55,251 nucleotides of DNA from Nitrospirota bacterium (GTDB lineage: Bacteria; Nitrospirota; RBG-16-64-22), in NCBI GenBank assembly GCA_016195465.1, contig JACPZO010000065.1, forward strand, positions 1 to 55,251, given 5' to 3'. Under the pieces are notes generated by a model, which was not told where the DNA came from, did no database searches, and saw nothing but the letters and a program-made list of their open reading frames with translations. The position numbers and the translations under genes are program-made. Position 1 is the first letter of the stretch. Every line of letters starts with the position of its first letter. Of the stretch, positions 22,611 to 22,761 are shown piece after piece.

Positions 22611-22761
22611 GGATGTTGAAAAAGTCCATCCATGGCTTTTTCAACTGCGACTTGGCCGAAGTGAATTCGTCCAAGTCTCCCAAATTGCGACGCTTGGTAA
22701 GTCTCGCAATTTGGGAGTCCCTCCATGGACTCCCTGGCAGGGTGTTTTTCAGCACTCTGCC
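22611..22761 (+). repeat. multi-hairpin repeat element, copy B
   Basis: Direct repeat of 12085-12226. Hairpins lie at 22616-22644, 22649-22677, 22678-22716 (13-bp perfect stem) and 22713-22734. It sits 240 nt after the helicase stop and 70 nt before kdsB. Confidence 0.85.

Follow-up and report, generated by a model that had tools for sequence, protein, structure and literature searches.

A stretch of 55,251 nucleotides from a Nitrospirota bacterium (GenBank assembly GCA_016195465.1, contig JACPZO010000065.1, positions 1 to 55,251), hereafter called the window, contains one sequence of about 150 nt twice, both times on the + strand. Copy A lies at about 12078-12240 and copy B at 22604-22762. 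Both copies are very probably non-autonomous DNA transposons of about 150 nt, that is, miniature transposable elements with inverted repeats (MITEs), with the 16-nt terminal inverted repeats (TIRs) of an ISAzs10-like group in the IS5 family. The terminal repeats, 4-bp duplications at the target sites, autonomous elements with matching ends, a dispersed multi-copy distribution and one insertion in a gene are all observed for the element. The original prediction had described paired substitutions between the two copies and had raised the idea of a structured RNA that is bound or reverse-transcribed by the product of a neighboring reverse transcriptase (RT) gene.

A direct repeat (D2) joins the first 85 nt of the copies (12078-12162 and 22604-22688) with 85% identity, and the window contains exactly two occurrences of the 25-nt hairpin-1 core, against an expectation of zero. 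A covariance model (R1), built from 26 copies, matched only copies A and B in the window, both on the + strand. Each copy folds into five consecutive hairpins. The minimum free energy is -70.4 kcal/mol for copy A (z -6.9) and -77.6 kcal/mol for copy B (z -9.1), and in either case 0/200 shuffled sequences were as stable. The features of the two copies are as follows.

12083..12223, + strand: MITE copy A, GCTG-type subfamily, truncated at the right end within hairpin 5 (cmsearch, 155.9 bits)
12079..12082, + strand: left 4-bp target-site copy CTAT of copy A, within the Leu-Tyr codons of an ORF6N gene (flank position relative to the terminal repeat)
12083..12098, + strand: left TIR of copy A, CAGGATGCTGAAAAAG
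12089..12119, + strand: hairpin 1 of copy A, formed by TIR positions 7-16 and an inverted copy of them within the element
12123..12151, + strand: hairpin 2 of copy A
12155..12186, + strand: hairpin 3 of copy A
12187..12206, + strand: hairpin 4 of copy A
22609..22759, + strand: MITE copy B, full length, intergenic between a PLD/SNF2 helicase gene (end 22373) and kdsB (start 22831) (cmsearch, 166.4 bits; open reading frames (ORFs) and Pfam)
22605..22608, + strand: left 4-bp target-site copy CTAA of copy B
22609..22624, + strand: left TIR of copy B, CTGGATGTTGAAAAAG
22615..22645, + strand: hairpin 1 of copy B
22649..22677, + strand: hairpin 2 of copy B, with a C:T mismatch common to many copies
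22682..22712, + strand: hairpin 3 of copy B
22713..22734, + strand: hairpin 4 of copy B
22735..22762, + strand: hairpin 5 of copy B, a direct partial copy of the TIR paired with the right TIR
22744..22759, - strand: right TIR of copy B, reverse complement CAGAGTGCTGAAAAAC
22760..22763, + strand: right flank CCGA of copy B, a decayed target-site copy with 2/4 bases equal to those of CTAA

Both TIRs of copy B deviate from the family consensus. The break in copy A follows GCTGCTGTTTT at 12213-12223, and the nearest relatives of this copy are those in loci L007, L039 and L055.

Terminal repeats, target sites and autonomous relatives

Nearly all full-length copies carry TIRs of 15-16 nt with the pattern CAGGrTG(TT/CT/CG)GAAAAAG. 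CAGGATG(T/C)TGAAAAAG at the left end is the inverted counterpart of TTTTTCA(A/G)CA(C/G)CCTG at the right end. When the copies are aligned together with their flanks, the boundary of conservation falls at T-CTAN-CAGGATGTTGAAAAAG on the left and at TTTTTCAACACCCTG-CTAN on the right (hyphens separate the 4-bp flank from its surroundings). The 4-bp flanks are identical on the two sides in 13/29 copies, and rare variants are included among the identical pairs (CTAA, CTAT, CTAC in L089, CTAG in L012, TTAT in L062 and CTGA in L027). The variable fourth base of the flank matches in 19/29 copies. Neither count was ever reached in 10,000 permutations (p<1e-4 for each). TIRs together with a target-site duplication are the signature of a cut-and-paste type DNA element.

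The relation of the TIRs to the hairpins should be noted. In hairpin 1, TIR positions 7-16 (GTTGAAAAAG) pair with their own inverted copy, located 11 nt downstream; in hairpin 5, a direct copy of TIR positions 1-9 (CAGGGTGTT) pairs with the right TIR. The internal palindromes that make up hairpins 2-4 bear no relation to the ends. The alternative named with the original prediction, in which the stems are simple terminal inverted repeats from a known family of transposons, therefore holds for hairpins 1 and 5 but not for hairpins 2-4. At the base of hairpin 1, the pair C12090-G12118 of copy A is replaced by T22616-A22644 in copy B, as had been described. Since hairpin 1 is built from the TIR, this change is the difference between the GCTG and GTTG subfamilies mirrored in the internal partner.

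Searching the fetched loci for further TIR copies gave an autonomous relative on a Desulfarculia chromosome (L036:279-1628), where an inverted TIR pair lies 1350 bp apart with TTAA and CTAA as flanks. The ORF of this element (372 aa) scores 285.9 bits (cutoff 140) against NCBIfam NF033581, "IS5 family transposase" (transpos_IS5_4), and contains the Pfam domains DUF772 and DDE_Tnp_1. Among 80 metagenome relatives of this transposase (about 60% identity), 67 have CAGGnTG(TT/CT/CG)GAAAAAG at both ends with a spacing of 1.27-1.55 kb, and the flanks of these 67 elements are mostly CTAG, CTAA or TTAG on both sides. Among annotated elements, the nearest relative is ISAzs10, located on plasmid pAB510f of Azospirillum sp. 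B510, which reads TTAG-CAGGCCGCGGAAAAAG at the left end and CTTTTTCCGCGTCCTG-TTAG at the right end. IS5 itself is reported to leave a 4-bp duplication at YTAR targets (PMC5009759). The end variants of the full-length elements, GTTG, GCTG and GCGG, are the same as those separating the MITE subfamilies, in which GTTG is the copy-B type, GCTG is the copy-A type and GCGG is found in L029 and L033.

The ISAzs10-like group (NF033581) and the MITE thus have in common the 16-nt TIR pattern CAGG-n-(T/C)G-nn-GAAAAAG and a 4-bp duplication of the CTAG/CTAA/TTAG type, the fourth base being less restricted in the MITE. They differ in that the IS5-type elements are 1.3-1.5 kb long and contain a transposase gene, whereas the MITE is about 150 nt long and contains none. 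A comparison of the interior of the MITE with the interiors of these insertion sequences (ISs) by blastn-short found similarity confined to the 15-21-nt ends, which rules out that the interior of the MITE arose from subterminal sequence of an IS. An IS630/mariner-type MITE with a TA duplication was also considered, from the resemblance of the end ACAGG...AAGTCC to mariner ends; it is ruled out by the covarying 4-bp CTAN and by the IS5-family partners.

From these features we infer the chemistry of transposition and the kind of transposase that acts on the element. A DDE transposase encoded elsewhere would bind both TIRs and would excise or copy the element. The same enzyme would insert it at a site resembling T-CTAN-A, and repair of the staggered cut would then duplicate the 4 bp. 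Copy B would be an intact intergenic copy whose right flank has decayed.

Palindromic elements are also moved in another way, in which a tyrosine (HUH) transposase mobilizes hairpin DNA in single-stranded form, as in REP/REPIN- or IS200/IS605-type elements. The presence of several imperfect palindromes, whose loops are conserved and whose stems covary, and the extragenic, multi-copy occurrence would fit such an element, and REP/BIME/REPIN sequences mobilized by RAYT proteins share with the MITE the extragenic palindromes, conserved loops, compensated stems and modular mosaics. However, the MITE has TIRs and a target-site duplication, and these match DDE-type IS5 elements; elements of the REP/REPIN and IS200/IS605 types are not known to have either. 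In addition, no Y1/HUH transposase was seen beside any copy, though not every ORF was scanned and the search for RAYT genes was not systematic. We therefore consider an HUH-type element to be almost certainly the wrong description.

Distribution of the element among genomes

A scan with the hairpin-1 core, taking one genome per species, yielded at least 104 loci (L001-L104), which split into two families. The family of the window has the core GAAAAAGTCCATCCATGGCTTTTTC. Its hosts, according to the labels of the metagenome-assembled genomes (MAGs), are Nitrospirae RBG_16_64_22, Nitrospiria, several groundwater "Deltaproteobacteria", Thermodesulfobacteriota, Desulfarculia, Leptospirales, Gammaproteobacteria/Pseudomonadota and one 1-kb Azambacteria contig. 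Model R1 found more than 50 copies of the element in 46 loci among the matches listed. Several copies are often present per genome, for example in at least seven loci of the Nitrospirae RBG_16_64_22 assembly, at least five of NC_groundwater_1641 and at least four of GWA2_55_10. Both the copy-A type and the copy-B type are carried by Nitrospirae RBG_16_64_22, where copies almost identical to copy A are found.

The copies differ from each other by whole modules, some of them being devoid of hairpins 2-4. In L012, L034, L022, L044 and L067, a homologous extra hairpin block of 75-100 nt follows GTGAAT in the loop of hairpin 2, at an identical position in each. A small GC hairpin, CCCGCC...GGCGGG, lies between hairpins 4 and 5 in L007, L010, L014 and L061. 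Hairpins 1-2 are duplicated internally in L013, and two MITE copies are adjacent in L075. Just 5' of copy B in the window, a stretch of about 96 nt (22476-22569) has 95% identity, in reverse orientation, to L007 6745-6840 (Nitrospirae RBG_16_64_22), where the match adjoins the right end of the MITE copy of that genome. This stretch is either a second repeat family or a preferred neighbor of the MITE.

The second family found by the scan occurs in Planctomycetes and Kuenenia (for example L005, L024, L031, L073 and L101). Its repeat, GTGGAAAAAGGCCATGGATGGCTTTTTCCAC, belongs to a MITE of about 150 nt with CTAN flanks, a GTGG-type TIR and its own internal hairpins, and some copies adjoin tRNA genes. 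Read on the other strand, it begins with CTAG-CTGTCCGTGGAAAAAG-CCATCCATGG-CCTTTTTCCAC, continues with the internal hairpins and ends with CAGACTTGTTCCACAGTCTG-CTAG, so that the 4-bp flanks match. The apex of hairpin 1 next to the TIR is the same as in the window's family, while the interiors are different. This plan is the same in both families, and thus the layout of TIR plus hairpin 1 is common to at least two MITE families.

The kind of element, a MITE that parasitizes IS5-family transposases, is well known. Bacterial MITEs with stable folds include Correia/NEMIS in Neisseria, ERIC/IRU in enterobacteria, and RUP and BOX in pneumococcus (PMC3184786). Judging from the layout, not the sequence, the element resembles these in being small, non-coding, mostly intergenic, multi-copy and hairpin-forming, in having TIRs and short target duplications, and in forming length variants by gain or loss of internal modules. 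It differs from them in the transposase family and in the target, which is TA for Correia and RUP elements and 4-bp CTAN here. The Correia, ERIC, RUP and BOX elements form one long foldback, in contrast to the five separate hairpins of the MITE in the window, and their hosts differ from the uncultured Nitrospirota and Desulfobacterota-like bacteria that harbor the latter.

No match to the element was found by blastn in plasmid and phage collections. A search of full-text literature for the hairpin-1 sequence found no paper, and literature searches for MITEs of these taxa and for ISAzs10 found nothing relevant. The family and its sibling in Planctomycetes appear to be undescribed in the literature and databases searched. 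Both families are abundant in groundwater and sediment MAGs, in which they will break assemblies, split genes (here the ORF6N gene) and seed false predictions of noncoding RNA (ncRNA).

Pairing of the internal hairpins

The paired differences between copies A and B can be read off the two sequences, and therefore the observation in the original prediction is confirmed in its details. In hairpin 2, the arms are GACTTGCGCGAA/TTCGCGCAAGTC in copy A and GACTTGGCCGAA/TTCGTCCAAGTC in copy B, with one C-G pair swapped to G-C and the adjacent pair turned into a C:T mismatch. In hairpin 3 (CAAATCGC/GCGATTTG in copy A, CAAATTGC/GCAATTTG in copy B), a C-G pair becomes T-A, and the stem is longer in copy B. 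Hairpin 4 is unrelated between the copies, GCGGTGCA/TGCACCGC in copy A being replaced by GGGAGTCC/GGACTCCC, a different 8-bp stem, in copy B.

Covariation above background, proposed as a check on further copies, was found when the alignment of the 26 copies was counted with the five-hairpin structure. Standard pairs make up 93.1% of the stem cells, against 86.0% in shuffled alignments. Changes on both sides occur at 29/54 stem pairs, against 13.4±2.1 in shuffles; 0/500 shuffles reach 29, and controls in which the structure was slid give 11-16. Hairpin 2 alone takes at least eight different stems among the copies. The loops are constant, being TCCA/TCCC in hairpins 1 and 4 and GTGAA in hairpin 2. 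The frame beginning with MLKKSIHGFF is open in both copies of the window, as had been pointed out; in many other copies, it meets a stop after 15-30 codons or is without a start codon. A coding function of the MLKKSIHGFF peptide is ruled out, because the frame is not conserved. The view that the constraint is on base-pairing and not on a peptide thus agrees with both the strong covariation and the fate of this frame.

Covariation alone did not separate an RNA from a palindromic transposon, and the kinds of noncanonical pairs should be noted in this respect. Among 1392 stem cells, 1275 are Watson-Crick pairs, 21 are G:U on the + strand and 33 are A:C, which corresponds to G:U on the other strand. 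A functional RNA is normally far richer in G:U than in A:C. The orientation of the element to its neighbors, based on rough ORF calling, is the same as that of the nearest upstream ORF in 26 cases and opposite in 18; for the nearest downstream ORF, it is the same in 27 and opposite in 19. A scan for promoter-like and terminator-like sites around copy B found none. Rfam gave no match in the whole window at the gathering threshold, and in five element-bearing loci searched at E<=1, it gave weak unrelated matches only, none of which overlaps the element. These observations point to a DNA-level palindrome rather than a strand-specific RNA.

The hairpins of a MITE may nevertheless be kept for an action at the RNA level when the element is co-transcribed with a gene, as an mRNA stabilizer, a processing site or an attenuator; such roles have been reported for REP, ERIC and Correia elements. 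The survival of the pairing through many independent double changes and the constant loops of hairpins 1, 4 and 2 would be consistent with this explanation, as would the positions of the copies, which are often right next to the stop codon or start region of a flanking ORF, and the same hairpin-rich plan of the Planctomycetes family. However, the orientation to neighboring genes is unbiased, G:U is no commoner than A:C, a terminator-like tail is absent, and a constraint at the DNA level would equally yield perfect palindromes. We consider an RNA-level action unlikely.

Returning to the transposon explanation, hairpins 2-4 have stayed paired through many independent double substitutions, and the candidate causes are a requirement in transposition, the host's tolerance of the element once it is transcribed, or repair by template switching inside palindromes. 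A broader proposal is that the internal hairpins are a functional requirement common to a cross-phylum superfamily of IS5-parasitic MITEs. This proposal is speculative, and we lean against it. If it is true, mobilization by IS5 transposases or survival in the host would depend on the element's folded DNA or RNA, and the subfamilies and the transposase variants that match them (GTTG, GCTG, GCGG and GTGG ends) would co-evolve. The well-compensated internal stems make the element a tractable case for the question of a possible role of MITE secondary structure in IS5-type transposition.

Several points weigh against the assignment as an IS5-dependent MITE. The strong covariation in hairpins 2-4 exceeds the needs of a minimal MITE and is not accounted for by the transposon model by itself. 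Perfect flanks are kept only in the 13/29 copies given above, and the fourth base of the MITE target is often T or C, which is looser than the YTAR of IS5. Insertion is deduced from the flanks and was not directly seen, no empty orthologous site having been recovered. No cognate transposase gene was found within the 55-kb window. The spread across phyla rests on MAG binning, and short contigs such as L067 (1 kb) can be misassigned.

The methylase-RT-helicase cassette and the disrupted ORF6N gene

The two copies lie on either side of a cassette of genes that includes the RT gene, and copy A interrupts a gene of the ORF6N type. The relevant genes are as follows.

11876..12082, + strand: N-terminal part of the ORF6N gene, ending with ...LAELY, its last 4 nt being CTAT (Pfam ORF6N profile positions 2-26 of 86)
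12224..12611, + strand: C-terminal part of the ORF6N gene, in another frame (Pfam ORF6N positions 48-86 at residues 55-92 of the ORF 12060-12611)
12839-16522: type IIG-like Eco57I/TaqI_C methylase
16529-18394: reverse transcriptase (padloc RT_UG21, 2.6e-102)
18391-19032: small four-helix "23S rRNA IVP"-like protein
18897-22373: PLD + SNF2 helicase
22831-23610: kdsB

Some defense RTs use structured ncRNAs, and the element could in principle be such an RNA, serving the adjacent UG21-type RT and its cassette as a template, primer or guide. The five stable, covarying hairpins and the positions of the copies, which bracket the cassette in the same orientation, are in favor of this idea. The element is also similar to the ncRNAs of retrons and DRT systems (msr/msd) in its length of about 150 nt, its multiple hairpins, its inverted ends and the presence of a defense-type RT in the window. 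Unlike these ncRNAs, however, the element is not adjacent to the RT gene, copy A lying 4.3 kb upstream and copy B 4.2 kb downstream of it, and it is bounded by target-site duplications. Co-occurrence of the element with the RT is absent in both directions. In tblastn searches with the methylase, RT, IVP protein and helicase of the window, 0/47 element-bearing loci had a relative of any of them. Conversely, RT homologues with 75-80% identity are found in other assemblies (L188-L192) in the same methylase-RT-...-PLD/SNF2 helicase cassette, and the element model gave no match even at E<=1 in these five loci, each taken with 10 kb on either side. Cassette and element are thus independent of each other.

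The original suggestion of a structured RNA that the neighboring RT would bind or copy is thus contradicted by the co-occurrence results, by the TIRs with a 4-bp duplication and IS5-type ends, for which an RT-associated RNA has no place, by the stems, which have no wobble asymmetry between strands, and by the element's lack of a fixed orientation to flanking genes. We regard it as extremely improbable. An RT template or a repeat of the diversity-generating retroelement (DGR) type is ruled out on the same ground, that is, no co-occurrence either way. The practical meaning is that what appears to be a structured RNA near a defense RT is a mobile DNA repeat and is not to be pursued as a template or guide of the RT.

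The arrangement of the copies further allows the possibility that they are the ends of a composite transposon carrying the 10.4-kb methylase-RT-helicase island. The copies flank the island as direct repeats, and the outer TIR of each belongs to the GCTG type (at 12083, CAGGATGCTGAAAAAG; at 22744-22759, the reverse complement CAGAGTGCTGAAAAAC). However, the outer flanks differ (CTAT against CCGA), leaving no target duplication of a composite element; the ORF6N gene resumes directly after copy A, not after copy B; and the same cassette occurs elsewhere without the element. A composite transposon is accordingly highly improbable. There is no demonstrable link of either copy to the cassette between them, and their proximity to it is best read as two separate insertions of the MITE near a defense island.

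The cassette itself, consisting of the methylase, the UG21-type RT and, after intervening genes, the PLD/SNF2 helicase, looks like a conserved candidate defense system. In L188, L189, L190 and L192, it has varied small genes between the RT and the helicase (SPL, HEPN/nucleotidyltransferase and AbiE), or the helicase is upstream of the methylase.

The two parts of the ORF6N gene on either side of copy A lack about 21 positions of the ORF6N profile between them. Copy A would have inserted at CTAT within the Leu-Tyr codons of this gene (GAG CTC TAT-CAGG..., the hyphen marking the junction). Instead of continuing to ...CAGCAGCCTG-CTAT, the copy ends in hairpin 5 with ...GCTGCTGTTTT. Since it ends within this hairpin, a later deletion probably removed the second CTAT along with the right end of the copy, and with them about 60-80 nt of ORF6N.

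Two other features of this region should be noted. In the C-terminal part of ORF6N, a perfect hairpin of 11 bp, TTGAGGTCACAgattGTGACCTCAA, lies at 12240-12270, and a similar sequence, GAGGTCACAAATTGGCGCCTCAAG, is near the start of the gene (11944-11975); this likeness may mean that part of the gene was duplicated internally. Four two-copy tandem duplications, all perfect and all different, stand in a row at 11715-11860, with periods of 10, 11, 14 and 15 nt (AACCTGACGG, CCATGGGTGTG, GCCCGAGAGGAATC and GCCCCTGGCGTAGTT); they are placed between an unannotated ORF (10965-11750) and the disrupted ORF6N gene. Farther downstream in the window, whose GC content is 65%, the stretches 35809-35892 and 39569-39638 each consist of a G-rich run and, after it, AT-rich short repeats of the AAATTG/AAATTGT type (family D1).

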